Shown here: positions 6,756 through 22,550 of the stretch, in pieces
Numbering within the stretch: the first letter of the stretch is position 1
How the letters are laid out: every line of letters begins with the position of its first letter
Assembly (NCBI RefSeq): GCF_049723875.1
Contig: NZ_JBNAKN010000005.1
Coordinates: 15,112 to 39,111, forward strand
DNA length: 24,000 nt
Reading direction: 5' to 3'
Source: Methanobacterium sp.
Lineage (GTDB): Archaea > Methanobacteriota > Methanobacteria > Methanobacteriales > Methanobacteriaceae
Translations under genes and position numbers: made by a program
Notes under the pieces: generated by a model
What the model saw: the letters and a program-made list of their open reading frames with translations, nothing else
Database searches by the model: none
What the model was told of the DNA's origin: nothing

Positions 6756-7235
6756 TTATTTGCTTGATTCTAAACTTTTCATCTTCAAAATCTTTGCAGC
6801 CATCCTTAAATCGTTTCCACATTCTTGAAGAATGTTATTTGCTTCTTCTTCTGGAATATCAAAAGCATCAGCAAGTGCCTTAACTTCTTCCTGTGATGAT
6901 TCAGATACGCCTACAAGCTCTTCAGATAATTGTTTTTTAAGTTCCATATATTCATCAGAGCTCATGTTTATCCTTCTCATTACCATATCCCTTAAAGGAC
7001 ATGGTTTGGATGGTTTACAGCACCAGACAAGAGAACCAAAACAGGTTCCTTCTCCTTGACCTAATCTTGTTTTTTTACCAAATTCTTCTTTTTTTGCTAT
7101 ATAATCTTGAGAACTGAGATTTGCATCTTCAAGTGCATATATAATTGGGCAAGGTTTAACTGGCGGACAACAAAATGCCAACGCTCTTTTGTCCCCTCCC
7201 CTGCATACGTGTGATGGTGAATCTTCCCATACCAT
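6756..7235 (-). CDS. Small cysteine-rich protein with two CC-P-x-KPCP motifs and a UBA-like C-terminal helical domain (possibly a methanogen-specific marker protein)
   Basis: An internal duplication is visible: CRGG...[16 protein letters not shown] and [21 protein letters not shown]. The C-terminal [26 protein letters not shown] resembles the UBA domain of archaeal NAC/EF-Ts. It lies directly upstream of atwA. I cannot confirm a family name without a search. Confidence 0.6.
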
Positions 7236-7322
7236 TATATTCCTCCATTATAAATCTAGTATTTTAACTGAAAATCTAATTTTCAGTAATTAAAAATAAT
7301 TTAAATCTGAAAAAAATAAAAT

Positions 7323-8918
7323 TTAGTCTTCAGTAAGCATTTCTTTCTTTTCAGTTGGAGTCAAATCTTCTACTATATCCTTTGGATCTCCTATTTTGAG
7401 GATTCTTCCCCCTCTCATAAGAGCAGCCCTATCACAGACATCGAGTACAAAGTCCATATCGTGGGATATTATAACAAAAGTTTGACTTAATTCATCTCTC
7501 GCCTTTATTATAGAATCTGTAACCTGGACTCTAGTTATCGGGTCCATAGTTCCAGTAGGTTCATCAAGAATGATTATGTTAGGTTCTTTTATTAAAACTT
7601 GCGCTAAAGCAACCCTGTGACGTTCACCGCCACTTAATTCATCAGGATATTTATCCAATAAGCTTGTAGCATATTGTTCATCGAATCCAACTACTTTGAG
7701 CGTGTATATTGCTTTCATTTTTGCAAATTCTGCAGGTAATTCTAAACTTATAGCTTCAGTTAAATTCCCTAAAACAGTCCTATGAGGGTAAAGACTGTAT
7801 TCTTGATGAAGAATACCCAAATAAGGTTTTATTCTTCCCCTCCCAAGAGGGCCTGATTGGGTCATGTCAATCCAGTCATCCCCCAGTTTTGCAGATATAT
7901 TACCCGAACTTGGCTCTGTTAATCCATAAAGTATCCTTGAAAGAGTTGTTTTACCTGCCCCACTTAAACCAACAATACCAAAAATTTCTCCTTCACCAAT
8001 AGTCAGACCTATACCATCTACAGCTTTAATTACTCCCCTTTCAATGGAGTAATAATGCTTTTTGACGTCTTCCATTTCGATGATTGGGCCGCCAGTTTCG
8101 AATTCTTCTTTCTTTTCAGGAAGTGGAACCTGTTCTAAAAATCTAGCTACGACCTCTTCAGGGTCACCTTCATCTACTATTTCTCCCCTTTCAAGCCAGA
8201 TTACATAATCAGAAAGTTTTCTCATAACTTCAGGCCAGTGAGAAGTTATAATCATTGTAGTGCCTTTTTCTTTTACACCTTCAAGCAAAGCGTGGTGTAA
8301 AAGTTCAGCAGTTTTTGGATCAAGTGTACCTGTAGGTTCATCTGCAAGAAATATCATAGGTTCCTTTGCTATTTGTCTTGCAAGCACTACCCTTTGTTTT
8401 TCCCCACCACTTAGATCTCTTGCAATATGAGTTATCCTGTGAGTCATCTGGGTCATTTCAAGGAGATCTATAGCCATATATGTACTTTCTTCCTCATCAT
8501 GACCATTAATGGATTTTAATACATTATCGATTACAGTATCATCTTCATAGAGGGCAAATGTCCTCTGTAACATTATTGAAATTCTTTTTCTAACTGCAGC
8601 AAATATTTTCCTATCGGTGTCCCACAGATCAACACGTTCTGCTTCAAATTCACCGCCGCAGGAACATTTCTGTCCGACTTTTGATGGAGGATCTACCATG
8701 TAACACTTTGAACATAATGCAATATTTAAGATAATTTTACCATTATCAGGTTTATATTCCTTCATTCCACGAAGCATGTTAATAAGAACTGATTTTCCAG
8801 CGCCGCTTCTACCTAAAATTCCCAATACGCTGCCTTCATTTATAGTTATACTCAAATTTTTTAAAATTTCTACGTCATTAAATGTTTTAGTGACGTTTTC
8901 TAATTCTATAAAAGACAT
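7323..8918 (-). CDS. atwA: Methyl-coenzyme M reductase system component A2 (tandem ABC ATPase)
   Basis: It has two ABC cassettes: Walker A GRSGAGKS and GLSGAGKT, signatures LSGGEKQR and LSGGERHR, and Walker [10 protein letters not shown] and [10 protein letters not shown] Cys4 insertion (CSKC...CSCGG) sits in cassette 1. It has no TM domain and is about 530 aa, as expected for component A2. Confidence 0.8.
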
Positions 8919-8996: not shown

Positions 8997-9707
8997 TTAT
9001 ACTTGAGACAAGTCAAAAGGAACGCTTCCTTTTAATGTAGCTCTTGCTATTGATATCCCATCTGCACCAGCAGAAAGCATATCACGTGCAGATTTAAGAT
9101 CATGAATAGAATTATTACCTATTAAAAATATTTCAGTGTTTTCTTTAATTGTCCTTATAATGTTGTAATCTGCATGGTTATATCCTGGTTTCATGGCATC
9201 TACATGCAAATAATCAGCACCTGCTTTTTCAATAGCTTTTGAAACTTCAATATCATTTACATTTCGAACATTTGCTCTGATCTTAACTGATACTTTACTT
9301 TCAGCTCTTTTTACCACATTTTTTGTAAAATTATATAATTTTTTGGTATCATAAAGAAGTGCCTGTCCACAGCCAATATCAGTTATTTCAGGTTGTCTGC
9401 AGTGTGCATTTATTTCCACTACATCAATTTCATGTAGTTTCGATACTTCAACAATAGGTTCAAATGAAACTGAACGTAGGTTAACAGATACAGTTCCCTT
9501 CCAGGAAGTTTTAAGTATATTTGCTTCTTTTTTAATAGATGATAACAAATTTTCTTCATCTATATCAAATTCTTGTCTTCCTCTTTGAATAATACTGCAT
9601 CCCGCTTCCATTGTAGGTTTATCTGCGTTATAGCCGCCAAGGGTTACCATGTCAAAACCATAAGGAGCCAATTTTAAGCAAAAATTTCCATCGGTTATTC
9701 CTGCCAT
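8997..9707 (-). CDS. Dus/NifR3-related TIM-barrel flavoprotein (archaeal type)
   Basis: MAGITDGNFC matches the PMAG(V/I)TD motif of dihydrouridine-synthase-like TIM barrels. It sits next to GTP cyclohydrolase III. The conserved-looking residues IAGEFIEVLAP continue in frame upstream of the ATG with no ATG/GTG/TTG, so the true start is uncertain. Confidence 0.6.
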   Translation of the reverse strand: MAGITDGNFCLKLAPYGFDMVTLGGYNADKPTMEAGCSIIQRGRQEFDIDEENLLSSIKKEANILKTSWKGTVSVNLRSVSFEPIVEVSKLHEIDVVEINAHCRQPEITDIGCGQALLYDTKKLYNFTKNVVKRAESKVSVKIRANVRNVNDIEVSKAIEKAGADYLHVDAMKPGYNHADYNIIRTIKENTEIFLIGNNSIHDLKSARDMLSAGADGISIARATLKGSVPFDLSQV

Positions 9708-9780
9708 TGGCGCTAAAACTTCAATAAACTCACCTGCAATAAAAAATTATTAATTTAGAGTAAAATATAAATTGAAATGA

Positions 9781-10548
9781 TTAATCCACTAATTTTTCAT
9801 TCATAACATGGACAAGATCGTAGGTGACTCCACCTCTTATCTCTTCCAGAGCTAGATCTGCCAAATTAGCAGCTTTTTCAGCCGTAGGTGCTTTTCCAAT
9901 ACCTGCTTTAAGCGCTATATTGGTTTCATCTTCAATTTCTTCAACTATTTTTAAGAGTCCTTCAGGGCTAAGTCCATTACATGGAGACATAAAATTATCT
10001 CCCCCTATAAAGAAGACAAGTGAACCTTTTTCAATTAACTTTTTCATTAAGAAATGTTGAACTCTATTTACAATAAAAGAAGTATCATAAGCCGGGATTA
10101 TATCAGTTAAAGAATCTGTAATTCCATTTATATCTATATGGGCAATTTGAACAAAACTGTCATCTTTATTTACAAGACCATCTATAGCCAGAACTTCTTT
10201 TCGCTCTTCAGATTGTGCTCCACCATAATTTTGAAGAGCTGCTGTAGCATCTCTTTGAGCTTCATAAGGAGTTTCAGCTGCTCCAACACCCATACTTATG
10301 GTTATTGGATATCTATTGCCTATTGATTTCTGGATTCTCAAATGATCCTCCACATCTACATTATTAGTAATTGCAAGCATGTTATCAAAGCGGGTGAAGA
10401 AAACAAGTCCACCTTTAGCAGCAAATTGTCTTTGAATATCAGCATAAAGCTCTGCTTGCAGGATTTGAAGATCTGCTTCAGCCCTTGGAGTCGGAGTAAC
10501 AGTCCATGGGCCGTAATTATCAATTTGAATTAAAGTCATCTGTATCAT
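9781..10548 (-). CDS. gch3: GTP cyclohydrolase III
   Basis: The N-terminus [22 protein letters not shown] is the hallmark of the archaeal GCH III family (MJ0145 type). It is about 255 aa. Its ATG overlaps the cofD stop as ATGA (10548..10545), which suggests translational coupling. Confidence 0.85.
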
Positions 10549-11450
10549 AAAATTTCACCCAAAATAATTCTGGCTAACCTCACTTTATCATTGATGGTCT
10601 TCATGTTTGTGTTTGTTATAACGACCTTTGATATTAGTTTTTCTATTTTTTTCTCAGATTCTATGTCCTCAACATCTATGATAAACTTGTCCATAAATTC
10701 CTTATAAATTGTTGCAACACCTTCACACGATACTTCGTATCCCATTGCATTCATAAACTTTGCTGCGGGACCACTTACAGGATTTCCACCTATTATTGGA
10801 GATACTGCAACAACATAAGAGTTTTTAAGAGCTTTTCTTACTCCATTCATTGAGATTATTGGCCCTATGGATGTTATCGGATTAGATGGCCCTATTATGA
10901 CCATATCTGAATCTTCAATAGTACTTATTACATCATCTGAAGGTTCAACATCTGCATATATTATATCTTCCACTTCAGGCTGTGCCTTTTTTCCAACCAG
11001 AAATTCGTGGAAGCTCATTTCCCCTTCATCTGTTATAATCTTGATATTAGATTGCTCATCACTCATAGGAATGATCTTTGATTTAACACCTAATTTTTTT
11101 CTTTGAATATCTACGACTTCAGAAAGAGGATACTTCTCCATTAGCATAGTCTTTTGTATCTTAATGGCGCGATCTTCATCCCCAATTCTTAAAATCTCAT
11201 TATAACCCATTTCTTTTAAAGTTTCATGGGTTGTAAATGTATCTTTGTCAATACCGTACCATGTGTTTTCATTTATAATTCCTGCGAGAGTATACATCAC
11301 AGTATCTATATCTGGTGCTATATAGTTTCCTGATATATATGTATTTTCTACTGTGTTTACAATTATATTGAGATCTTCGGGATCGGTTGTCTGGACTATC
11401 CCCTGAATTAATTTTGGAGTTCCAGTTCCTCCAGAAAGTATTGTTATCAT
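10545..11450 (-). CDS. cofD: 2-phospho-L-lactate transferase (F420 biosynthesis)
   Basis: It has the characteristic CofD N-terminus [18 protein letters not shown], is about 300 aa, and neighbours cofE. Confidence 0.9.
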
Positions 11451-11708
11451 ATAGCTCGTTTTTAAAGTTTGTTTTGTAGTTAATGATTTTAATGAAGATT
11501 AAAGCATACACGTTTTATTTATAGTTAAATACTCACTATTTTTTGGATCATATTAATCTTTTGAAAATCACAGCCCACAGGTTTTTAGGATTTGATGCTT
11601 TAATTCATGCTATTCAAAACAGTGTTTTTAAGAGTTTCAGTTTCATTAGTGAGTATTTATCCATATAACCTGTCTTTAAAGTTTGTTTGTATTAACGTTT
11701 TTATGATG
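11448..11708. repeat. Element A3: imperfect ~47-nt direct repeat duplicating the cofD start codon and leader, enclosing a ~165-nt insert
   Basis: 11448..11495 (catatagctcgtttttaaagtttgttttgtagttaatgattttaatga) and 11662..11708 (catataacctgtctttaaagtttgtttgtattaacgtttttatgatg) are roughly 80% identical with small indels and share a 14-nt exact core, tttaaagtttgttt. The insert has a 12-bp inverted repeat aaatactcacta (11527..11538) / tagtgagtattt (11647..11658) and weaker A/T-tract hairpins such as caaaac-agt-gttttt. Confidence 0.7.
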
Positions 11709-11743
11709 TTTTAAATATTACTGTAATTCACATAATTTAAGTT

Positions 11744-12505
11744 TTATCTAAATATATCATATTTTTTAGGCCTTATCAGATCGTTAGCTGTTGCATTATT
11801 ATTCTTTAATTTTTTAACGTAGTCAACGCCCCTTATTATAACAACAGGTATTCCTTCATCTGCTTGACCCATTAAAATTGATGCCGCAGATGCTAATTCA
11901 TCTGCAACAGCGATACTTGTAGTTTGAAGTTCCCTTCCGTAGAGATCTTTTTCACCTTTTCTATCCCAAAGAGCATTCATTCCAGATATACCAATTGCAG
12001 TACCAATAGCTCCTTCTCGAAAGGCCCTTCCTTGAGTATCCGATATTATAACAACAACTTCCTTTTCACTCAAAGTTTCTATTTTTTTCATTATAAGAGA
12101 TGCGCTTTTATCTGGATCTTCAGGCATAGGTGTAGCCATATCATTTTCCACATTCGATTCATCTATTCCTGCATTTGCACACACAAAGCCATGTTTAGTT
12201 TCACTAATTATAAAATCAGGACCTACTTTTAATATTTCAGTAGATTCCTGAATTATTGCCTCTACAACATGAGGATCTTTTCCCGTTTTTTCTGCAAGTT
12301 CAAGGGCTTTTTGAGTTGGTTTAATAGTTTTAAGGTTGATTTTATTTCCTTCTGCCTTTGATATTATAGTTTCAGCTATGACAAAAATATCTCCATCTTC
12401 AATGTTAATATATTCATCATTCATTGCATCTACTATTAAAGCAGCGATGTCATCGCCTTCTGCAATTAAAGGAATATTTTCAATTCCAATGATCTTGATA
12501 TCCAT
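11744..12505 (-). CDS. cofE: Coenzyme F420-0:L-glutamate ligase
   Basis: [20 protein letters not shown]... and [19 protein letters not shown] are typical CofE motifs. I place the start at the ATG at 12505 (GGTGA RBS), which avoids overlapping purO; the track start at 12565 is unlikely. Confidence 0.85.
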
Positions 12506-12527
12506 GCATTCACCAGACTGAATCAGA

Positions 12528-13142
12528 CTATAGAGAACCAATTTTCCATTCATCATCTTCTGCAAATGCAGCCACGGAATCTACAGGATTAGTGAATTCT
12601 TCAAATTTGCCACCACCATATATAAATTTAGCGGCTTCATCAGCGTTATTACAAACAAATTCGACATAATTTGGTTTTATGTGTTCATAAGTTGAAATAT
12701 AACTGCACTGTTCAGCTTTAACCTTTTCAACTATGAGCGTATCACTTGTAACAATCCCTATATAAGAATCCCCGCCTAATGTTGTAGCTCCTGCGATACG
12801 TGGAGTATTTAACTCATCTTTTTCATAATCCATTGTAAGTAATGTTAATGCGATTGAATCGCGTATATTCATGCCAGAAGCTATTTTTTCTGCAATGATA
12901 TCAGTATGAGCTCCATTTGAAACTACAGCAACATCATCCACAATTCGTATACAATTATAAGCAATGTAAGGGTTTTTAAAAACGTCTTTTTCATATCCTT
13001 CCTTTGGTACAATTGCAGCCCTGTCTTCAAATACATTTACCATTCTATTTGGAAAAGACCGGCTTGAAACCCTATATGCCACAAATTTTCCTGCTTCTGT
13101 ACTTCCAACTGCTAAGATTCTTCCAAGATACATTTTTTTCAC
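12528..13142 (-). CDS. purO: Archaeal IMP cyclohydrolase
   Basis: It has the PurO N-terminus [10 protein letters not shown], is about 200 aa, and keeps the conserved purO-cofE-cofD order known from Methanothermobacter (recalled from memory). The start is at 13142 or 13133. Confidence 0.85.
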
Positions 13143-13200: not shown

Positions 13201-13599
13201 TCATTGAGTAGGTATTGATACCGCTTTATTTATAGGGAATCCTGCGGGTGTAGTTATAATAATTTCCCCAGCTTTAGACCGTATAATTATTTCCCCTTCA
13301 TCAATCACTCTTGTATGTACTGCAATTGCTCCGTTTCGTATATAACTTGACATATCTTGCCCATTTACTGTAACTTTCTTTAAACCAGCAACTGGAACTA
13401 AATAATACTCGGATGTTCCACTACTTTGCGTTACCTGAGGTTTTCCAGATGCAGACTGAGTTTGATCAGCAGCACCAAAGCTACTTGTAACCATTAAAAA
13501 TATAAGAATTGTAAAAACAACATCGATAAACGGGACCATGTTGAATCTAGGAGTATTTTTCCTAACTTTATTTCTGTATCTGCTTACATCAAGAACCAT
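13201..13599 (-). CDS. ExbD/TolR-family biopolymer transport protein
   Basis: It has a single N-terminal TM with the ExbD signature NMVPFIDVVFTILIFLMV, is about 130 aa, and lies directly downstream of an ExbB-like gene. Confidence 0.75.
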   Translation of the reverse strand: MVLDVSRYRNKVRKNTPRFNMVPFIDVVFTILIFLMVTSSFGAADQTQSASGKPQVTQSSGTSEYYLVPVAGLKKVTVNGQDMSSYIRNGAIAVHTRVIDEGEIIIRSKAGEIIITTPAGFPINKAVSIPTQ

Positions 13600-13634
13600 C
13601 GAATAACTTCCTATACATTTAAAGAATTTTTATC

Positions 13635-14474
13635 TTACTGCATTAACTTACTTTCAATAATCTCAGCTTTAGTGTTACATTTTTCCATAATTATATTGTG
13701 AATACTTTTTTCAAGCATACTGGGCTTTAAAGCCACCAAAACATTTGCATCATAATCTTCGATTTCTTTAACTTTTACAATTCCTTCCGCTTCTTTTAAA
13801 GCCTCAACTGCGATTTTAGGATCAATCGCCACTTTTATTCTCATAACTGCCGAGTTCCAATTAGTCATTTTCTTAGCAATCTCTATCTTATCCATCTCAT
13901 CTTCTATTTTACCAGTAATATAAGAATGAAGAGGAACTAAAGCTATTGCAACAGTAAGCCCAGCTATAGTGGTAATTAGAGCAATGTAAATCCCTTCTGC
14001 CATTCCTGATGAACTTGCCCCCATTCCAAGAGCCCTAAATGTATACCACATACCCAAAACTGTTCCTATTAATCCTAATAGAGGGGCAACTTCAATTATC
14101 ATTTTAATTGTGCCTAGACCCCTAGTCATTCTTCCCATCTCAACTATGAATACACGTTCCATTGCATCTTCAACTTCAGTTTTATTTCTGTAACCAATTT
14201 TTAAGGCTTCTGAAATGATTTTTGAGACTGGATTTTGATATTTACCTATGGAGCGCAATGCTTCAAGAGATCCTCCCTTTTCCATAGCTTCATTCACTGT
14301 TCCCATAATTAAAGGTGGAGAAACCTTTGATATTTTGCGTAAATAACGAATCTTCTCAATGGAAGCTAAAAACCCATATATTCCTATAATAGTTATTATA
14401 TAAGTTATAATTCCCCCACTTTTGAACATCTCCAATATAGTGCCAAAAGAACTGCTTAAAAACTCATATATCAT
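13635..14474 (-). CDS. MotA/TolQ/ExbB-family proton channel protein with a C-terminal soluble extension
   Basis: It has three TM segments and the conserved APLLGLIGTVLGM motif. About 85 extra residues follow the last TM. Confidence 0.75.
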   Translation of the reverse strand: MIYEFLSSSFGTILEMFKSGGIITYIITIIGIYGFLASIEKIRYLRKISKVSPPLIMGTVNEAMEKGGSLEALRSIGKYQNPVSKIISEALKIGYRNKTEVEDAMERVFIVEMGRMTRGLGTIKMIIEVAPLLGLIGTVLGMWYTFRALGMGASSSGMAEGIYIALITTIAGLTVAIALVPLHSYITGKIEDEMDKIEIAKKMTNWNSAVMRIKVAIDPKIAVEALKEAEGIVKVKEIEDYDANVLVALKPSMLEKSIHNIIMEKCNTKAEIIESKLMQ

Positions 14475-15489: not shown

Positions 15490-16563
15490 TTACTTCATAG
15501 CTTTCAGACGTACTTCTGGTTCAAGTGCCCTTGGTTCTGCAGCTACAATAGCAGCTCCTTTTGCGACTACAGTCATAGGGTCATCTGAAATTTCTACAGG
15601 AACGCCAACTTCTTCATATATCCTTTCTTTTAATCCTCTAAGTTGTGATGTTCCACCAACAACTACTGTTTCTTTGTAGACTCCAGATATAAGTTCAGGA
15701 GACATTCTTTCAAGTATAACTTTTAATGCTTCAATAAGTTCAACTACTACAGGTTCTGCAGCTTCTGCTACCAGTGCCGAATCCAATTCAACTTCTTTTG
15801 GCTTGTTAGTTTCCATATCTTTTCCAATGGCAGTAGTTTTTATAATTTCAATATCTGAACCAGAATGAACCATTCCAACTTCTATTTTAGCTTTTTCTGC
15901 TTCATGAATTCCTATCTGGACATTGTAAAGATCTTTAACTTTTTCTACAATGTTATCATCAATATTATCTCCACCAAGTCTTACTGTTTCTATATCAGTG
16001 ATTCCACCAAGAGAGATAACCACAATATCACTTGATCCAGCACCTATATCAATTACCATTGTACCAGATGCTTCTGCAATTGGTAATCCTGCACCTATAG
16101 CTGCTGCGAGACCTTCACTTATAACTAAAACATAACTTGCTCCAGCTTTTCTACCTATTTCTTCTACAGCATTCTTTTCTACTTCGGATGCATCTCCAGG
16201 AATACCTATAACAATTCTATCAATATGATCCATTGAGTCTCCTGCACCTTTATCCATAGCATAAATAAGAAGAGCTTCAGCTTGAGCTACACTTTCTATA
16301 ACTCCTTTTCTTAGGGGCCTTACAGCTATAATATCCTCTGGCGTTCTTCCAAGCATTAATTTTGCATCTTCACCTACTGCAAGCACATAAGATGGATCTT
16401 CTTTTTTTACAGCTACTACAGATGGTATTTTATAAAGATCAAATTTATCTCCTGAAGGTTTTGCGACAACAGTATTGAGTGTACCTAAATCAATTCCTAA
16501 GGTATTTGTTATCCCTTCCTTCCTCACTTCTTCTGTTTCTTCCTTCTTTCCAAAAAGATTCAT
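15490..16563 (-). CDS. mreB: MreB-like actin-family cytoskeletal ATPase
   Basis: Actin/Hsp70-fold phosphate and adenosine motifs are present: GIDLGTLNTVVA, VIDIGAGSSDIVVISLGGI and VVVGGTSQLRGLKERI. It is about 350 aa with no Hsp70 substrate-binding domain. Confidence 0.75.
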   Translation of the reverse strand: MNLFGKKEETEEVRKEGITNTLGIDLGTLNTVVAKPSGDKFDLYKIPSVVAVKKEDPSYVLAVGEDAKLMLGRTPEDIIAVRPLRKGVIESVAQAEALLIYAMDKGAGDSMDHIDRIVIGIPGDASEVEKNAVEEIGRKAGASYVLVISEGLAAAIGAGLPIAEASGTMVIDIGAGSSDIVVISLGGITDIETVRLGGDNIDDNIVEKVKDLYNVQIGIHEAEKAKIEVGMVHSGSDIEIIKTTAIGKDMETNKPKEVELDSALVAEAAEPVVVELIEALKVILERMSPELISGVYKETVVVGGTSQLRGLKERIYEEVGVPVEISDDPMTVVAKGAAIVAAEPRALEPEVRLKAMK

Positions 16564-16564
16564 T

Positions 16565-17203
<639 letters not shown>

Positions 17204-17686: not shown

Positions 17687-17720
17687 AAAATTTTGAATAT
17701 AAAAAAATTTTGAATATAAA
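17687..17720. repeat. Perfect tandem duplication of a 17-mer (AAAATTTTGAATATAAA x2) overlapping a 16-bp palindrome
   Basis: 17687..17703 equals 17704..17720. The first copy is embedded in the perfect palindrome attcaaaattttgaat (17683..17698). It lies about 120 nt upstream of the psd start. Confidence 0.85.
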
Positions 17721-17836
17721 TCAATTCATGAAAGACATGTTTCTATATTTTTTATACAAACAATTTTTATAATAATAAGCATAAAAAGTCTGCAGTAAAT
17801 CCATTGATAATATTCATTAAAAAATTTGTGATTCTT

Positions 17837-18508
17837 ATGTTCGTTAAAGGAACTTTAAAAAAGGCAGGATTATTTTTAACTTTAGCAGTCTTACCCTTTT
17901 TATTTGGATATTTCTTAGTAAGCTTAATCCTATTTTCAATTCTAGCATTTATTATGCAGTTTTTCAGAGATCCAAATAGACGTGTACCTCAGGAAAAAGG
18001 AGTTGTAGTAGCTCCTGCAGATGGAAGAGTACTCAAAGGACAAATTGACAAGATAGAGATAGTTGAATACAACGATCCATTAATGAAGCATATATTAAAA
18101 AAAGGGGAAAAAGGAGTTCGTATAAGTACATTCATGTCTCCATTTGATGTCCACGTGAATAGATCTCCTGTTTCTGGAAAAATTGTAAAGACCAAACACT
18201 TTCCCGGAAAATTTAAATTAGCGTTTAAAGATGCGGAAACTGAAACTGAAAAAGAAAAAAATTTAATAGTAATTGACTCACAGTACGGAAAAATTGGAGT
18301 AGTTCAAATTGCAGGTTTTGTAGCAAGGCGTATAGTCCAATATGTTAATGTAGGTGACAAAGTTGAAATAGGAGAAAGATTAGGGATGATAAAATTTGGA
18401 TCTAGAGTAGATCTAATTGTACCCTATGAAAAATGTAAATTAATGGTTAAAGAAGGTCAAAAACCAAAAGCAGCAGAAACAATAATGGCTAAAATAATAA
18501 ATAGTTAA
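17837..18508 (+). CDS. psd: Phosphatidylserine (archaetidylserine) decarboxylase proenzyme, short type
   Basis: It has an N-terminal TM, FRDPNR, and the pyruvoyl-forming cleavage motif in MIKFGSRVDLIVP. The ATG at 17837 is preferred over the TTG at 17804. It neighbours pssA. Confidence 0.8.
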   Translation: MFVKGTLKKAGLFLTLAVLPFLFGYFLVSLILFSILAFIMQFFRDPNRRVPQEKGVVVAPADGRVLKGQIDKIEIVEYNDPLMKHILKKGEKGVRISTFMSPFDVHVNRSPVSGKIVKTKHFPGKFKLAFKDAETETEKEKNLIVIDSQYGKIGVVQIAGFVARRIVQYVNVGDKVEIGERLGMIKFGSRVDLIVPYEKCKLMVKEGQKPKAAETIMAKIINS

Positions 18509-18747: not shown

Positions 18748-19458
18748 ATGAATATTAAATCTTTTACATCTATTGCAGACATAGTTTCAATTGCGAACGC
18801 TTCATCAGGATTTCTAGCAATCATAATGGTAACAACAGGTAATTTTGTATTAGCCGCTAAGTTTATGTTACTAGCAGTCATATTTGACGCGTTAGACGGA
18901 TGGGTTGCCAGGAAATTAAATAGAAAAGATGAATTTGGTTTTGGAAAGAACGTCGATTCTTTATCAGACATTATATCCTTTGGAGTCGCTCCAGGAATGT
19001 TTTTGTATATATTAAGCCAGTCCTCAGGAATATTCTACTTTAATATAATTGTAGCTCTTTTAATAGTCATATGCGGGATACTGAGACTTTCAAGATTCAA
19101 TGTAATTACAGATTCACATGATGACAAGTTTGTTGGGTTACCTATTCCATCAACAGCATTGATACTCTCCTCATTTTATCTTTCAGGATTTTTCAATGCA
19201 AGCTTAGCTTTAGTCATTATGACTGTTGTATCCCTATTCATGATAAGTACAGTCAAATATCCCAAATTTAGAGGCATTAAAACATTAGCAGTGGGGAGCA
19301 TACTAATTATAGCAACGCTATTACCTCAAAACATTTTATCATATATTACCTATTTCCCCGCAAAGCTTTTATTTATTATTATGCTACTATACTTATTGAT
19401 TGTACCAGTTATAGATTTATACATTAAATTCTTTAGAAGTGGTCCGAATGTTAGATAA
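18748..19458 (+). CDS. pssA: CDP-alcohol phosphatidyltransferase: CDP-archaeol/diacylglycerol--serine O-phosphatidyltransferase
   Basis: It carries the CDP-alcohol phosphatidyltransferase motif DALDGWVARKLNRKDEFGFGKNVDSLSDIISFG (D-G-x2-A-R-x8-G-x3-D-x3-D), is polytopic, and has a GGGGG RBS. Confidence 0.85.
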   Translation: MNIKSFTSIADIVSIANASSGFLAIIMVTTGNFVLAAKFMLLAVIFDALDGWVARKLNRKDEFGFGKNVDSLSDIISFGVAPGMFLYILSQSSGIFYFNIIVALLIVICGILRLSRFNVITDSHDDKFVGLPIPSTALILSSFYLSGFFNASLALVIMTVVSLFMISTVKYPKFRGIKTLAVGSILIIATLLPQNILSYITYFPAKLLFIIMLLYLLIVPVIDLYIKFFRSGPNVR

Positions 19459-20731
19459 GATACGTGGAAAAAAGAAAGACGATACAGATACTCCTGATCT
19501 TAGGGGAAATAACAATAAGAAGGATGACTCTGATATAGGAGGACGCCTTAAAGGCATGGTAGGCAAAGTAACTGGAAGAGGAGACGAAGATAAAAAAGAA
19601 GAAATGAAAGCTCCTCCAGAAAGGAAAATGCCACGACCTATGCCTAAACCTATGGCAAAACCCGGTGAAAAACCACGGTTAAAATCTCCTCAAAAGAGAC
19701 CAGAAGATAAAAGGCCAGGAATGGGTGGTTTTGGAAGAAGAATCCCTGATGATGATCAGAGGACTCTTGTTGGAGCTGCAGTTTTTGGAATAATATTGAT
19801 TGTACTTGTTGGAGCAGGTTATTACTTTTTAGTTTATGCACCTTATCAAGATACATTATCAAATGCCAAACAAACAAAACTTAGTGCAGTTAATACATAC
19901 TTTACAGGGCCACTAGCAACAGATGCACGGGGAATAAATCTTAGAGCTCAAATTGAGAGTGCTACAACGCCTGATCAAGTAGATGCTATAGATGTTCTTG
20001 GTCCCGCAACAGAAGCGTGGAGAGAATATCAAAATCAACAGATTAATTCACAAAAGGATGCCTATGGGCGAGTTATGATAACATATGCTGCAGGTACGCA
20101 GAAGAATGTAATATTAAAAGTTGCAGACGCTAAAACATTGGTTTCACAGGCAGATGCCACTGTCTTATCAAACATGGAAATTAAAACCCCAAATACTGTG
20201 GCTATTCCAATAATAATTTCTAGATTACAGGCTGCAGGAGGCCTTATAAATGTCGGAAATTCGGTTGACGTGTATTTACTGAATGATACTTCAAACAGCA
20301 CCGTATCAACAAATGGTACTCCTCAAATAAGTGGGGCAACTGTTCTCGCAATTCTAAGAGCTAAAAACAGTGGAACAATAAATGCAAATAAGTCACATGC
20401 AACAGATATTGCCATGAGCAATCTGGTTCAAGGTAGTTCACGCAGTGAATCCGCATCAGAAGATGTTGATGAACTTTTAAAAGCTGCTGCTGCCAATAAC
20501 TGGGATCAAAGTGAAGTAAGTTCCTTATTGAACTCATATGGTTGGAGATTATCAGATTTCGAGAGAAGTTCAAACCTCGGAGAACTTGATGCACAATACC
20601 TATTATTACTAGAGGTTCCAAGAGAAAATGCAATATTCCTTATACAAAATATGAACAACGTTATACTTACAGTCCCAACCCAGCAAGCTCCGAACTGGAT
20701 GATTAAGGAGCTGAAGCAAATATACGGATAA
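19448..20731 (+). CDS. Single-pass membrane protein: basic Pro/Lys-rich N-terminal tail, one TM, large extracytoplasmic domain (CpaB/RcpC-like architecture, unconfirmed)
   Basis: The ATG at 19448 overlaps the pssA stop by 11 nt (a GTG at 19439 is an alternative start). The tail includes ...KMPRPMPKPMAKPGEKPRLKSPQKRPEDKRP..., and the TM is LVGAAVFGIILIVLVGAGYYFLV. Downstream, IPIIISRLQAAGGLINVGNSVDVYLL and YLLLLEVPRENAIFLIQNMNNVILTV recall the SAF/beta-clip and C-terminal segments of Flp-pilus CpaB. That resemblance is inference only. Confidence 0.6.
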   Translation: MLDKIRGKKKDDTDTPDLRGNNNKKDDSDIGGRLKGMVGKVTGRGDEDKKEEMKAPPERKMPRPMPKPMAKPGEKPRLKSPQKRPEDKRPGMGGFGRRIPDDDQRTLVGAAVFGIILIVLVGAGYYFLVYAPYQDTLSNAKQTKLSAVNTYFTGPLATDARGINLRAQIESATTPDQVDAIDVLGPATEAWREYQNQQINSQKDAYGRVMITYAAGTQKNVILKVADAKTLVSQADATVLSNMEIKTPNTVAIPIIISRLQAAGGLINVGNSVDVYLLNDTSNSTVSTNGTPQISGATVLAILRAKNSGTINANKSHATDIAMSNLVQGSSRSESASEDVDELLKAAAANNWDQSEVSSLLNSYGWRLSDFERSSNLGELDAQYLLLLEVPRENAIFLIQNMNNVILTVPTQQAPNWMIKELKQIYG

Positions 20732-20742
20732 TCATCCAAGCA

Positions 20743-20790
20743 GGATATATGTGATAAATCGGGCCATTTTAAGGGAAATCACATATATCC
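20743..20790. promoter_or_regulatory. 13-bp perfect inverted repeat (ggatatatgtgat / atcacatatatcc) with a 22-nt spacer, upstream of the sortase-substrate gene
   Basis: The arms at 20743..20755 and 20778..20790 are perfectly complementary. The repeat starts 12 nt after the stop of the upstream gene and ends 28 nt before the ATG at 20818. It could be a terminator/attenuator stem-loop or a dimeric regulator site. Confidence 0.5.
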
Positions 20791-20817
20791 CCATATAATA
20801 ATAAAAAGGGGATAGTA

Positions 20818-21759
20818 ATGAATATAAATAAAATGTGTATTGTATTAATGGTATTTATTGCAGTTATAGGAATAATAGGTTCAAATTCAACTAGTAATGC
20901 GGTATATGGGGCAGAAACATGGGTAAAACCAGAGAATACTAGCGTGTATATGACCAACTTTTATGTGACTATTCATGCTACTATTAAAAATAATGAAAAT
21001 CATGTTCAGTATTTTAAAATAAGTCAAACTTATACTGATAGTCTAGACAGCCCTATTAATTGGCAGATTACCAGTAAACCCGGCGCAGTAAAAATGGTAG
21101 ATTCAGTTTCTCCAGAACTTAATGGAGACTGGGGATGGAAAATACAACCAGGACAAACAAAAACAGTGTGTTTTACCCTTTTAGCTGTTAGTAGTAATAA
21201 TACGGGCCAAGCTGCGAGATTTAATATATTAAATAAAGGTTCTGTAGCAAATAAATACTGGCCAATAATTCCAGATCCAGGTTTATATACTTCATGGTTT
21301 CAGCCAAATGAAATAGAAATACTTAATCCAAGTTTAGATCTTAAGTACTGGAAAGGACAATTTAGTTTTGTGCTTTTGAACTATGATTCACACAGTGTTT
21401 CAGGAATAATAAGAGCTCCAATAGTACCAACTGATTCAAAACTTGTAGCTAGCAGTCCAAAAGCAACATTTTTAGATAATGACATAGTAATGAACGGGAA
21501 AGTTGCAGCATGGGACGTTACTTTAGGTCCAGATGGTTCAGATACGGGTGCAGGATTTTATAAATATACTTATGTATGGCCTTATTCAGGTTCATCATCA
21601 TCAGGCATAGGGAAATACTCATCAACATCAATACCAACAGCCAATGCAGCATCAGACAATTCATCAGCATCCACTAAAAATACAGGGATTCCATACTTCC
21701 CATTCGTAATTGGAGGTATTTTAGCTGCCGGCGGACTAGCATATGCAAGACTTAGATGA
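20818..21759 (+). CDS. Secreted surface protein with a tripartite C-terminal sorting signal (candidate sortase substrate)
   Basis: It has an N-terminal signal peptide (MNINKMCIVLMVFIAVIGIIGSNSTSNA) and a Ser-rich linker. The C-terminus reads ...SSASTKNTG-IPYFPFVIGGILAAGGLAYA-RLR, i.e. short motif, hydrophobic stretch, basic tail. The RBS is GGGGA. It lies immediately upstream of a sortase gene. Confidence 0.65.
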   Translation: MNINKMCIVLMVFIAVIGIIGSNSTSNAVYGAETWVKPENTSVYMTNFYVTIHATIKNNENHVQYFKISQTYTDSLDSPINWQITSKPGAVKMVDSVSPELNGDWGWKIQPGQTKTVCFTLLAVSSNNTGQAARFNILNKGSVANKYWPIIPDPGLYTSWFQPNEIEILNPSLDLKYWKGQFSFVLLNYDSHSVSGIIRAPIVPTDSKLVASSPKATFLDNDIVMNGKVAAWDVTLGPDGSDTGAGFYKYTYVWPYSGSSSSGIGKYSSTSIPTANAASDNSSASTKNTGIPYFPFVIGGILAAGGLAYARLR

Positions 21760-21815
21760 TAACTCATAAAAAATAACATTAACCTTAATAATAATAAACG
21801 ATAAAAAAAGGTTAC

Positions 21816-22550
21816 ATGAAGTTATCAACACTTTTTATCATAGCAGGGATGGTAATCATCTCCCTTTATTTTATGGTAGAAGTAAGTTTCTATGCAACAA
21901 CAGAGAATGTTGTTCTAAATAAATCAGATACTCCTTTTCTTGAAATACCCAAAATAAGTGTTGATCAAAATATCAACAACAAATCCGTAAATTACGGAGT
22001 GTATTATGAACCCGAATCTGCAAAACCCGGTTATGGAACTGTGGTACTAGCAGGACACAGAACATTTTACAGTTCTCCTTTCTTAAATCTAGATAAACTA
22101 AAAACTGGAGATAATATAACTGTATCATGGCCAGAAATAGGAAATGTCCAGTACACAGTAGTAAGATCATATATTGTTCCTGCATCATACCAGCTATCTT
22201 TAGATCAGGGCAAAACTCTTATTCTGTATACATGTTATCCTCTGGGATCATCCAAAGAAAGATTAATTATACAGGCAAATCAAACTAAAATAACCCCATT
22301 TGCCTATTCAAAAGCAGCAAATTCGAATAACGGGAAAAAAGATTTCCCATATGCTCCGTTATTAATAGCTGCCTTTTTAGGAATAGGTTTAGTCTTAAGC
22401 TATTTATATCCTGTAAAAGATGATAAAATATTTATTTTCATAACTGCAGTTGCCCTCACACTGTTTTTATTATATGGGTACCTGTTTCCAGTTCCAGGAG
22501 ATCAAATATCATCACAGATATCCAATTTGAGCGATATATTTGGAGGTTGA
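21816..22550 (+). CDS. Sortase-family cysteine transpeptidase, membrane anchored (N-terminal TM plus two C-terminal TMs)
   Basis: LEIPKISVDQNI...PGYGTVVLAGHRTF supplies the His, TLILYTCYP supplies the TLxTC-type Cys, and ERLIIQA supplies the Arg, completing the sortase H-C-R triad in canonical order. The TM segments are FIIAGMVIISLYFMV, LLIAAFLGIGLVLSYLY and IFIFITAVALTLFLLYGYLF. Confidence 0.8.
   Translation: MKLSTLFIIAGMVIISLYFMVEVSFYATTENVVLNKSDTPFLEIPKISVDQNINNKSVNYGVYYEPESAKPGYGTVVLAGHRTFYSSPFLNLDKLKTGDNITVSWPEIGNVQYTVVRSYIVPASYQLSLDQGKTLILYTCYPLGSSKERLIIQANQTKITPFAYSKAANSNNGKKDFPYAPLLIAAFLGIGLVLSYLYPVKDDKIFIFITAVALTLFLLYGYLFPVPGDQISSQISNLSDIFGG

Follow-up and report, generated by a model that had tools for sequence, protein, structure and literature searches.

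A sortase and its putative dedicated substrate encoded by a conserved locus of a pseudomurein-walled methanogen

Introduction

The sortases of methanogens with a pseudomurein wall were merely listed in the older genome papers on Methanobrevibacter and Methanothermobacter (PMC2812497, PMC3087415). Methanothermobacter was reported to have two of them (PMC3087415), and LPxTG proteins were reported in M. ruminantium and M. smithii (PMC2812497). The subject of the present analysis is a 24,000-nucleotide stretch of DNA from Methanobacterium sp. (contig NZ_JBNAKN010000005.1, positions 15,112 to 39,111 of the forward strand), referred to here as the window. It encodes a 244-amino-acid sortase (21816..22550, + strand) and, directly upstream, a 313-amino-acid protein named sec313 (20818..21759, + strand), which is a putative dedicated substrate of the sortase. 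Sequence analysis and modelling give good computational support to the reading that this pseudomurein methanogen has a sortase and, in synteny with it, the substrate.

Every characterised class of sortase, to our knowledge, transfers its substrate to an amine of a wall precursor or to a lysine of a pilin. SrtA of S. aureus is a housekeeping enzyme with many LPXTG substrates, the class E enzymes S. coelicolor SrtE1 and Thermobifida fusca SrtE act on LAxTG substrates in a murein wall, and class C sortases typically possess a C-terminal membrane anchor. The peptides of pseudomurein differ from those of murein in that they contain only L-amino acids and are joined through gamma and epsilon bonds. 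As a general rule, specialised sortases are encoded beside their single target (PMC8416519).

The closest description of the locus itself is the “cluster C” of Lupo et al. 2025 (PMC11915815), a syntenic group comprising an aminotransferase, an MreB-like protein, the coiled-coil orthogroup OG0001176, the DUF515/RcpC-like orthogroup OG0001177 and the Sortase E orthogroup OG0001178. These members were present in five of the five pseudomurein archaea tested, four Methanobacteriales and Methanopyrus, the Sortase E orthogroup being absent from other Euryarchaeota, and the cluster was set aside by its authors as pilus or surface related (PMC11915815). Judging from accession numbers, its genes are close together in Methanopyrus and dispersed in Methanothermus fervidus, while in M. 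thermautotrophicus the supplement gives the order coil (..656), DUF515 (..659) and sortase (..661) (PMC11915815). These accessions fit the arrangement of the window, with room for both psd and pssA after the coil gene and for a single gene separating DUF515 from the sortase.

A second point of reference is the archaeosortase ArtA of haloarchaea and Methanosarcina, which processes proteins with a PGF-CTERM signal (PMC7157517). The artA, pssA and pssD genes are syntenic in Methanosarcina, HvPssA and HvPssD are needed for lipidation of the ArtA substrates, and a sortase-like reaction with archaetidylethanolamine as the nucleophile has been explicitly proposed (PMC7157517).

The locus in the window belongs to cluster C, as it has the divergent arm of MreB and a probable coiled-coil protein beside the DUF515 and sortase genes on the + strand, an arrangement also found in Methanothermobacter. 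The sortase gene and its synteny with DUF515 were thus known before, published in 2025 as restricted to pseudomurein archaea (PMC11915815). The substrate gene, its sorting signal, the linkage to psd and pssA and the extra transmembrane (TM) helices of the sortase are absent from the published account, and in the literature searched no other description of the substrate or its signal was found. New here are the substrate family, its extended non-LPXTG signal and the apparent exclusivity of that signal, the archaeal two-helix module of the sortase, and a neighbourhood that parallels ArtA-PssA-PssD. A preliminary description of the window, which had proposed a three-gene module of a CpaB-like membrane protein, a secreted protein with a sorting signal and a polytopic sortase, is partly supported. 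Its three open reading frames are all present and its sortase with a syntenic substrate stands; the CpaB label, the three-gene module as a unit and the form of the motif do not.

The sortase

The 244-residue protein contains the segments FLEIPKISVD, VVLAGHRTF, LILYTCYPL and KERLIIQAN. It is matched by the Pfam Sortase profile PF04203 (MEROPS C60) with 66.6 bits against a gathering threshold of 26.6 (E = 2.3e-18), over residues 42–155 and profile positions 1–123 of 125, and 131 full-length homologues were found. The AlphaFold2 (AF2) model, built on 50 orthologues (predicted local distance difference test score, pLDDT, 76.7), consists of an N-terminal helix (residues 3–33) and a beta-barrel (residues 41–161). 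With this model as the query, Foldseek matched 113 PDB entries (E <= 0.001); the 50 that were listed are without exception sortases, with a probability of 1.00. The top match is Thermobifida SrtE, with class E matches reaching 9.3e-10 and classes A, C and D close behind. The strands over residues 41–161 together with these matches identify the eight-stranded beta-barrel of the sortase fold.

The catalytic triad consists of His81 (codon 22056–22058, + strand), Cys140 (22233–22235) and Arg149 (22260–22262). The histidine lies in the motif GHRT and the cysteine in L[IY]TC, and all three residues are invariant in alignments of 13 and of 50 sequences. They are also kept in the three most divergent orthologues, from the Methanothermobacter-like, Methanobrevibacter and UBA587 loci. 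The product is confirmed as a sortase-fold protein with a conserved triad, far beyond chance, and the His-Cys-Arg signature that had first suggested a sortase is borne out by the Pfam score, the fold search and the invariance in 50 orthologues. From its sequence the enzyme is predicted to act as a transpeptidase on the C-terminal signal of the neighbouring protein. With 92–93% identity to the sortases of Methanobacterium sp. UBA8 and MBAC-LM, it places the host in the genus Methanobacterium, and hence among the pseudomurein methanogens that the preliminary description had considered.

The frame of the sortase is interrupted in two metagenome-assembled genomes with “MFD” isolate names (L061, 8001–8594, and L062, 8216–8641), in which the signal of the neighbouring substrate is intact. 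These interruptions are suspected to be assembly or sequencing indels and not true pseudogenes.

Profile searches confirm the superfamily of the protein and none of its classes. Every NCBIfam class model remains below its cut-off, which lies between 140 and 166 across the models: class D reaches 46.7 bits (NF033746, cut-off 165), SrtD 45.2 (NF058671, cut-off 140), class E 44.1 (NF033747, cut-off 160), the GN model 37.5 and class C 36.8 (NF033745, cut-off 160). When the family profile was compared with PDB sequences, the best match was the class C enzyme 8t28 with 48.4 bits, whereas SrtE1 obtained 24.7 bits. Filing the sortase in any class was rejected, since the sequence profiles favour C or D and the fold search favours E, with scores far below the cut-offs. 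The label “class E sortase” given by NCBI/CDD is for the same reasons nominal. The nearest non-archaeal relatives are sortases of Thermoleophilia/Actinomycetota with 30–39% identity.

The enzyme shares with the class E sortases SrtE1 and SrtE the fold, the His-Cys-Arg triad and the N-terminal anchor. It is set apart from them by the low profile scores, by a substrate motif [TS]xxTG, with VP before it and xP after it, in place of LAxTG, by two additional C-terminal TM helices and by a wall of pseudomurein rather than murein. With class C it has in common a membrane segment C-terminal to the catalytic domain and a neighbouring substrate with beta-sandwich domains; here there are two C-terminal helices and not one, a canonical lid segment is not apparent and the substrate has no detectable pilin fold. 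Between the first TM helix and strand beta-1 there are only about 15 residues, modelled with low confidence, apparently too few for a canonical class C lid (DP[FWY]); a conserved “DTPY” is located just before beta-1.

Hydropathy analysis shows three hydrophobic segments, residues 1–27, 176–201 and 202–227, and the protein is organized as an N-terminal membrane anchor (residues 3–27), a catalytic barrel (residues 41–161) and a pair of TM helices (residues 176–227). In the AF2 model the C-terminal helices span residues 179–197 and 201–223 (pLDDT ~91) and are followed by a terminal amphipathic helix (residues 228–242). This two-helix membrane module (22341..22496, + strand) is supported by hydropathy, the model and the alignment. 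A YPVxxD loop links the two helices, and among 50 sequences Y198 is invariant and P199 nearly so. The Thermoleophilia relatives have only the N-terminal anchor and end directly after the catalytic domain, with the exception of L070, which has one C-terminal hydrophobic segment. The module is thus a feature of the archaeal family, and the two extra helices pointed out in the preliminary description are real and family-conserved.

The substrate and its sorting signal

The protein sec313 starts with an N-terminal hydrophobic signal and ends in ...SSASTKNTGIPYFPFVIGGILAAGGLAYARLR. Its AF2 model (pLDDT 75.2) contains a signal-peptide helix, two beta-sandwich domains (residues ~43–124 and 159–254), a disordered Ser-rich linker of 35 residues (258–292) and a terminal helix (residues 294–312). 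As modelled, the linker would form a stalk that resembles wall-spanning segments.

Searches of the Pfam and NCBIfam families with sec313 gave no match, and faint Fn3-like matches appeared in seven of 54 family members. The family numbers 174 homologues, every named one of which is annotated as “hypothetical protein”. In an exhaustive HMMER search of 1.84 billion protein representatives, 36 relatives were found at E <= 0.001, mostly fragments, and the family was detected in Methanobacteriaceae only. A Foldseek search of the PDB with the model found no significant relative, Gram-positive pilins included (best E = 0.009, TM-score ~0.1). The block [YF]FK[IV][SG], which contains the lysine K67, is present in 88 of 97 substrate proteins, and in one orthologue the lysine is replaced by arginine.

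Three unusual relatives were encountered. P0265, of 118 residues, has the same type of signal peptide and the same sorting signal (...SVPVQNTGVPYGLFAVG...YARFLNKNARKSA), with three EPTLSSPSDI repeats in place of both globular domains. It may have arisen by deletion or else represent another type of cargo. P0267 (522 residues) and P0268 (622 residues) are distant homologues of the two-domain core that have neither the sorting signal nor the YFKIS lysine block and that end in long C-terminal regions of acidic or coiled character.

The C-terminal signal was analysed in 97 distinct C-termini, collected from the gene directly upstream of the sortase in 62 Methanobacteriaceae loci and from database homologues. 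They follow the pattern V/I(-5) P(-4) T/S(-3) x x T(0) G(+1) [VLIA] P(+3) [YFW] [GA] [LP] [FL], continued on the helix side by G(+10) ... G(+17) .. Y(+20) A [KR] F x R-COOH. The short form of the family motif is [VI]P[TS]xxTG[VLIA]P[YFW], a helix, and YA[KR]FxR. Glycine at +1 and proline at +3 are invariant (97/97 each), and threonine at 0 occurs in 93/97 tails. Upstream of it there is V or I at -5 in 75/97, proline at -4 in 76/97 and T or S at -3 in 89/97, position -2 being variable (K49, S13, Q10, R9, A6, P5 of 97). Conservation extends into the helix and the basic end, with glycine at +10 (79/97) and +17 (89/97), tyrosine at +20 (95/97), K or R at +22 (95/97) and arginine at +25 (81/86). 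The distance from the glycine to the C-terminus is 24 residues in 80/97 tails. The information content at the conserved motif positions amounts to ~3–4.3 bits, compared with 1.0–2.0 bits in the linker from -20 to -7.

In the window the signal occupies 21673..21756 on the + strand. The motif T286-K-N-T289-G290-I-P292 (21673–21693) is followed by a hydrophobic helix from Y293 to A310 (21694–21747) and by the basic tail R311-L-R313 (21748–21756). Candidate stretches for a sortase-cleavage peptide are SVPTKETGVPYG and SVPTKETGVPYGL. The window copy STKNTGIPYFPF is a slightly degenerate variant of the family motif, and the form “x-K/x-N-T-G” that had been read from it gives way to the consensus [VI]P[TS]xxTG[VLIA]P. 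Signals of more distant members have the cores ...VPTKNTGIPIGLL... (L055) and ...VPTKKTGLPLGLL... (P0242) in Methanobrevibacter, and ...VRKTGAPYGPLVIG..YTRLMR and ...VPSGKTGAPWGPFVVG..YTRLR in Methanothermobacter.

Across the 97 tails the three parts of a sorting signal are thus found in order: TG-x-P, about 17 hydrophobic residues and [KR]FxR-COOH. The arrangement of a motif, a hydrophobic stretch and RLR noticed at the end of sec313 is borne out, and the conservation pattern identifies this C-terminus as a tripartite sorting signal under purifying selection. It does not follow the LAxTG motif of class E, the position -2 being variable and -3 being occupied by T or S.

DUF515 proteins have, close to their C-terminus (20669–20704 in the window), the almost invariant string L[TV]VPTQxAPxWM, which is similar to VPTxxTGxP in the sorting signal (21673–21693), although no helix comes after it. 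This may be a coincidence, or it may be a pseudo-substrate or docking element for the sortase.

Pairing of sortase and substrate

The substrate gene is located directly upstream of the sortase in 52 of 57 informative Methanobacteriaceae loci, Methanothermobacter and Methanobrevibacter included. When ~1 Mb of flanking DNA was scanned for the motif, the signal pattern was found only in the gene beside the sortase. A scan of metagenomes with the core TG[VL]PYGLF[VI] gave 21 matching stretches. Of the 16 that could be confirmed, 15 are substrate orthologues that directly precede a sortase, with the gene order unchanged, and the sixteenth is a spurious internal match. A search with the full-length substrate profile returned only family members, fragments, the mini-variant P0265 and the two homologues that lack the signal.

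Because it was found only beside the sortase in the flanks and metagenomes, the signal looks dedicated to one protein family, which agrees with the rule on specialised sortases (PMC8416519). This search for further substrates covered the ~1-Mb flanks, protein representatives and metagenomes, not a whole genome, and more divergent signals are beyond its reach. The tripartite signal, the adjacency in 52/57 loci and the 15 genuine metagenome matches beside a sortase suggest that the upstream gene very probably encodes the cognate substrate, as had been proposed in the preliminary description.

Proposed mechanism and the nature of the acceptor

The locus is read here as a dedicated sortase–substrate pair of a pseudomurein-walled methanogen, in which the acceptor is most likely an amine of pseudomurein; the probability of this reading is put at roughly 0.6. 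The 313-residue protein would be exported by Sec through its N-terminal signal peptide and retained in the membrane by the helix at its C-terminus together with the basic tail. The sortase would be anchored with the N-terminus on the inner side of the membrane and the catalytic domain on the outer side, where this domain could recognise the motif [VI]P[TS]xxT-G-x-P next to the membrane. The helix of the signal would probably be recognised as well, by the two extra TM helices of the enzyme. Both this signal helix and the extra helices of the sortase are unusually conserved, which suggests recognition within the membrane, more like that of the CTERM signals of exosortases and archaeosortases than that of LPXTG.

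Cys140, assisted by His81 and Arg149, would attack the Thr-Gly bond to yield a thioacyl intermediate. An amine nucleophile would then resolve this intermediate and leave the two-domain beta-sandwich protein fixed to the envelope on its Ser-rich stalk. The most likely acceptor would be a free amine, located in the stem peptide of pseudomurein or in its lipid-linked precursor, by analogy with lipid II. That the T|G bond is cut, that transpeptidation follows and which acceptor is used are inferences; a pseudomurein acceptor is favoured because the sortase is confined to pseudomurein lineages, because of the chemistry known from all characterised sortases and because the disordered Ser-rich stalk is like a wall-spanning segment. 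The SrtA/LPXTG system of S. aureus follows the same overall logic, with export by Sec, retention through a hydrophobic stretch and a basic tail, cleavage at T|G (proposed here) and an amine as acceptor. SrtA differs in being a housekeeping enzyme with many substrates, whereas the sortase described here is polytopic and would serve a single dedicated substrate with another motif and another wall chemistry.

Several observations weigh against this picture. In the literature searched, no biochemistry of an archaeal sortase was found. The NCBIfam sorting-signal models did not match three of the tails or the whole substrate protein at E <= 10, and the signal fails as an LPXTG motif, its Leu and Pro positions being unconserved in the 97 tails. 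Conservation of the signal among orthologues could in part be that of an ordinary conserved anchor. Five loci (L018, L019, L028, L029 and L057) have an intact sortase and no substrate gene between DUF515 and the sortase (~6900–8000). Since the neighbour is missing from 5/57 loci and its family is the narrower one, the sortase may act on further substrates, some perhaps of greater importance. Collinearity with Methanothermobacter also runs well past the cluster, over RNase HII, ExbBD, IMP cyclohydrolase and DHNA, so adjacency is weaker evidence than it looks. Two further loci, L027 and L049, have truncated copies of the substrate gene.

The first alternative, which we consider unlikely, is that the protein is anchored to a lipid. 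Archaetidylethanolamine (or archaetidylserine), made by the upstream Psd and PssA, would resolve the thioacyl intermediate, and the extra TM helices of the sortase would hold the lipid head-group and the substrate helix, making the locus a convergent analogue of ArtA-PssA-PssD. The archaetidylserine decarboxylase gene psd/asd (17804..18508, + strand) and the archaetidylserine synthase gene pssA (18748..19458, + strand) are immediately upstream on the same strand, in Methanothermobacter as well; psd is found in 43/46 informative loci and pssA in 49/49, and pssA overlaps the DUF515 gene. To this can be added the membrane module missing from the bacterial relatives, the unusual conservation of the signal helix (G+10, G+17, Y+20) and the ArtA precedent. 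We know of no sortase with a phospholipid acceptor.

With ArtA (PMC7157517) the locus has in common a tripartite signal, a polytopic cysteine transpeptidase, a psd/pssA-type neighbourhood and a Ser/Thr-rich stalk, but ArtA is an archaeosortase and is unrelated to the true PF04203 sortase found here, and the signal here is not of the PGF type. Moreover, psd and pssA are of the housekeeping type, passing the housekeeping models and failing the “protein sorting system” subtypes. For pssA the model NF038087 (arch_ser_synth) gives 311.6 bits against a cut-off of 240, and NF038086 (anchor_synt_A) only 124 against 200; for psd, TIGR00164 gives 239.5 against 230 and NF038088 (anchor_synt_D) 139 against 240. 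The synteny may not be functional, as collinearity extends to unrelated housekeeping genes and the linkage is possibly mere collinearity. Terminator-like hairpins part DUF515 from the substrate gene in some species, and the cluster genes are dispersed in Methanothermus fervidus by accession order. Archaetidylethanolamine, finally, is widespread in archaea, whereas the sortase occurs only in pseudomurein lineages.

A second alternative, likewise improbable, is that sec313 is a tail-anchored protein that is never cleaved and that the sortase acts on other targets, either LPxTG adhesin-like proteins or the stem peptides of pseudomurein, which it would cross-link. No sortase that cross-links wall peptides is known to us. 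The five loci with an intact sortase and no neighbour are consistent with this explanation, as is the presence of the sortase in 5/5 tested pseudomurein archaea compared with the narrow distribution of the neighbour's family. Possible targets exist in the LPxTG proteins of M. ruminantium and M. smithii (PMC2812497), and the enzyme that cross-links pseudomurein has not been identified, only a transglutaminase candidate having been proposed (PMC11915815). A simple anchor would, however, have no need of an invariant glycine and proline and a near-invariant threonine at a fixed spacing before the helix, nor does it explain a signal that occurs only beside the sortase.

The least probable explanation is a class C-like polymerisation, in which the sortase would join the threonine to a lysine of the next subunit (candidate K67) to build a covalent, pilus-like fibre: the class C match among solved structures (8t28), the C-terminal membrane module, the two Ig/Fn3-like beta-sandwich domains as in pilins, a lysine block missing from the signal-less P0267 and P0268 and the two sortases reported for Methanothermobacter (PMC3087415), as in pilus systems with a separate housekeeping sortase, would suit it, but the substrate model is unlike any Gram-positive pilin, the class C profile score is far below its cut-off, the space before beta-1 seems too short for a class C lid, the candidate lysine is an arginine in one orthologue and each locus has a single pilin-like gene.

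Significance

In the literature searched, no function, recognition or attachment site on pseudomurein has been demonstrated for an archaeal sortase. The locus offers a defined test case, since it combines one enzyme and one substrate with a precise signal in which the scissile bond is predicted. Methanothermobacter, where genetics with shuttle vectors has been reported, has the pair conserved as well. The sortase of all tested pseudomurein archaea would have a cognate partner, which fits the view that the pseudomurein machinery was acquired along with part of the bacterial wall toolkit. Possible uses include sortase inhibitors against gut and rumen methanogens and, in biomethanation, the sortase-based ligation of proteins or their display on the methanogen surface. 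A lipid acceptor, if true, would be much more surprising, as a phospholipid would be a new kind of acceptor for sortases and the system would have converged with the unrelated ArtA-PssA-PssD.

Gene neighbourhood

The DUF515, substrate and sortase genes, first described as a three-gene module, are better seen as the right arm of a larger conserved cluster with the layout MreB-coil | psd-pssA-DUF515-X-sortase. The order psd, pssA, DUF515, substrate, sortase, DHNA is common to all Methanobacteriaceae sampled, with DUF515 upstream of the sortase in 53/53 informative loci and DHNA as its neighbour in 61/61.

The DUF515 gene encodes a single-pass membrane protein (19448..20731, + strand). The open reading frame is listed as 19439–20731 with a GTG start at 19439; the conserved start MLDKI corresponds to the ATG at 19448, which, with pssA ending at 19458, confirms the 11-nt overlap previously noted. 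DUF515 is the gene most tightly coupled to pssA, with an overlap or a gap of <=12 nt in 51 of 53 loci. The protein has a Lys/Pro-rich cytoplasmic N-terminus, a TM segment at about residues 106–136 of the listed reading frame and a large external domain, in which a weak RcpC/SAF-like beta-clip is discernible. It matches PF04415 (DUF515) with 73.1 bits against a gathering threshold of 29, and its Methanothermobacter orthologues are DUF515 proteins too.

The name “CpaB-like” is weak, since PF16976 (RcpC) gives 25.0 bits over ~60 residues against 28.8 and TIGR03177 gives 18.8 against 71. Neither the single sequence nor a 12-sequence profile of the DUF515 protein had a match in the PDB at E <= 1. 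A link to phosphatidylserine decarboxylase (14 bits, E = 0.019) was rejected as noise. The DUF515 protein may be an envelope scaffold.

Between the DUF515 and substrate genes there is a 13-bp perfect inverted repeat (20743..20790, + strand) with the arms GGATATATGTGAT and ATCACATATATCC and a 22-nt loop containing AAATCGGGCCAT. It is kept with compensatory changes in the closest relatives (L001–L004), and in the more distant species represented by L047, L055 and L040 a hairpin with oligo-T takes its place. The repeat could serve to part two transcription units, as a terminator, an attenuator or an operator.

The other arm is transcribed divergently from psd. It consists of MreB (15490–16563, - strand; PF06723, 334.9 bits) and a 212-residue protein (16565–17203, - strand), for which a Pfam search gave no match and which probably corresponds to OG0001176, the coiled-coil orthogroup of cluster C. 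The same pair is present in the Methanothermobacter loci.

The intergenic region that separates the 212-residue gene (- strand) from psd (+ strand) is 600 nt long with ~25% GC. Within it the 17-nt unit AAAATTTTGAATATAAA is repeated exactly, twice in tandem (17687–17720), and the repeat may be a regulator-binding site in a bidirectional promoter.

Beyond MreB, genes for MotA/ExbB-like and ExbD-like proteins (13201–14474, - strand) adjoin RNase HII and MreB and are kept at the same position in Methanothermobacter (L080–L083). An ExbB/ExbD-type proton-channel pair is unexpected in an archaeon that has no outer membrane; here it lies near a cell-shape and envelope cluster. The segment at 8997–13142 (- strand) contains ordinary methanogen housekeeping genes: a Dus-like gene, GTP cyclohydrolase III, CofD, F420-0:gamma-glutamyl ligase and IMP cyclohydrolase. 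Collinearity with Methanothermobacter holds for the IMP cyclohydrolase end at least, so gene order in this part of the genome is conserved irrespective of function.

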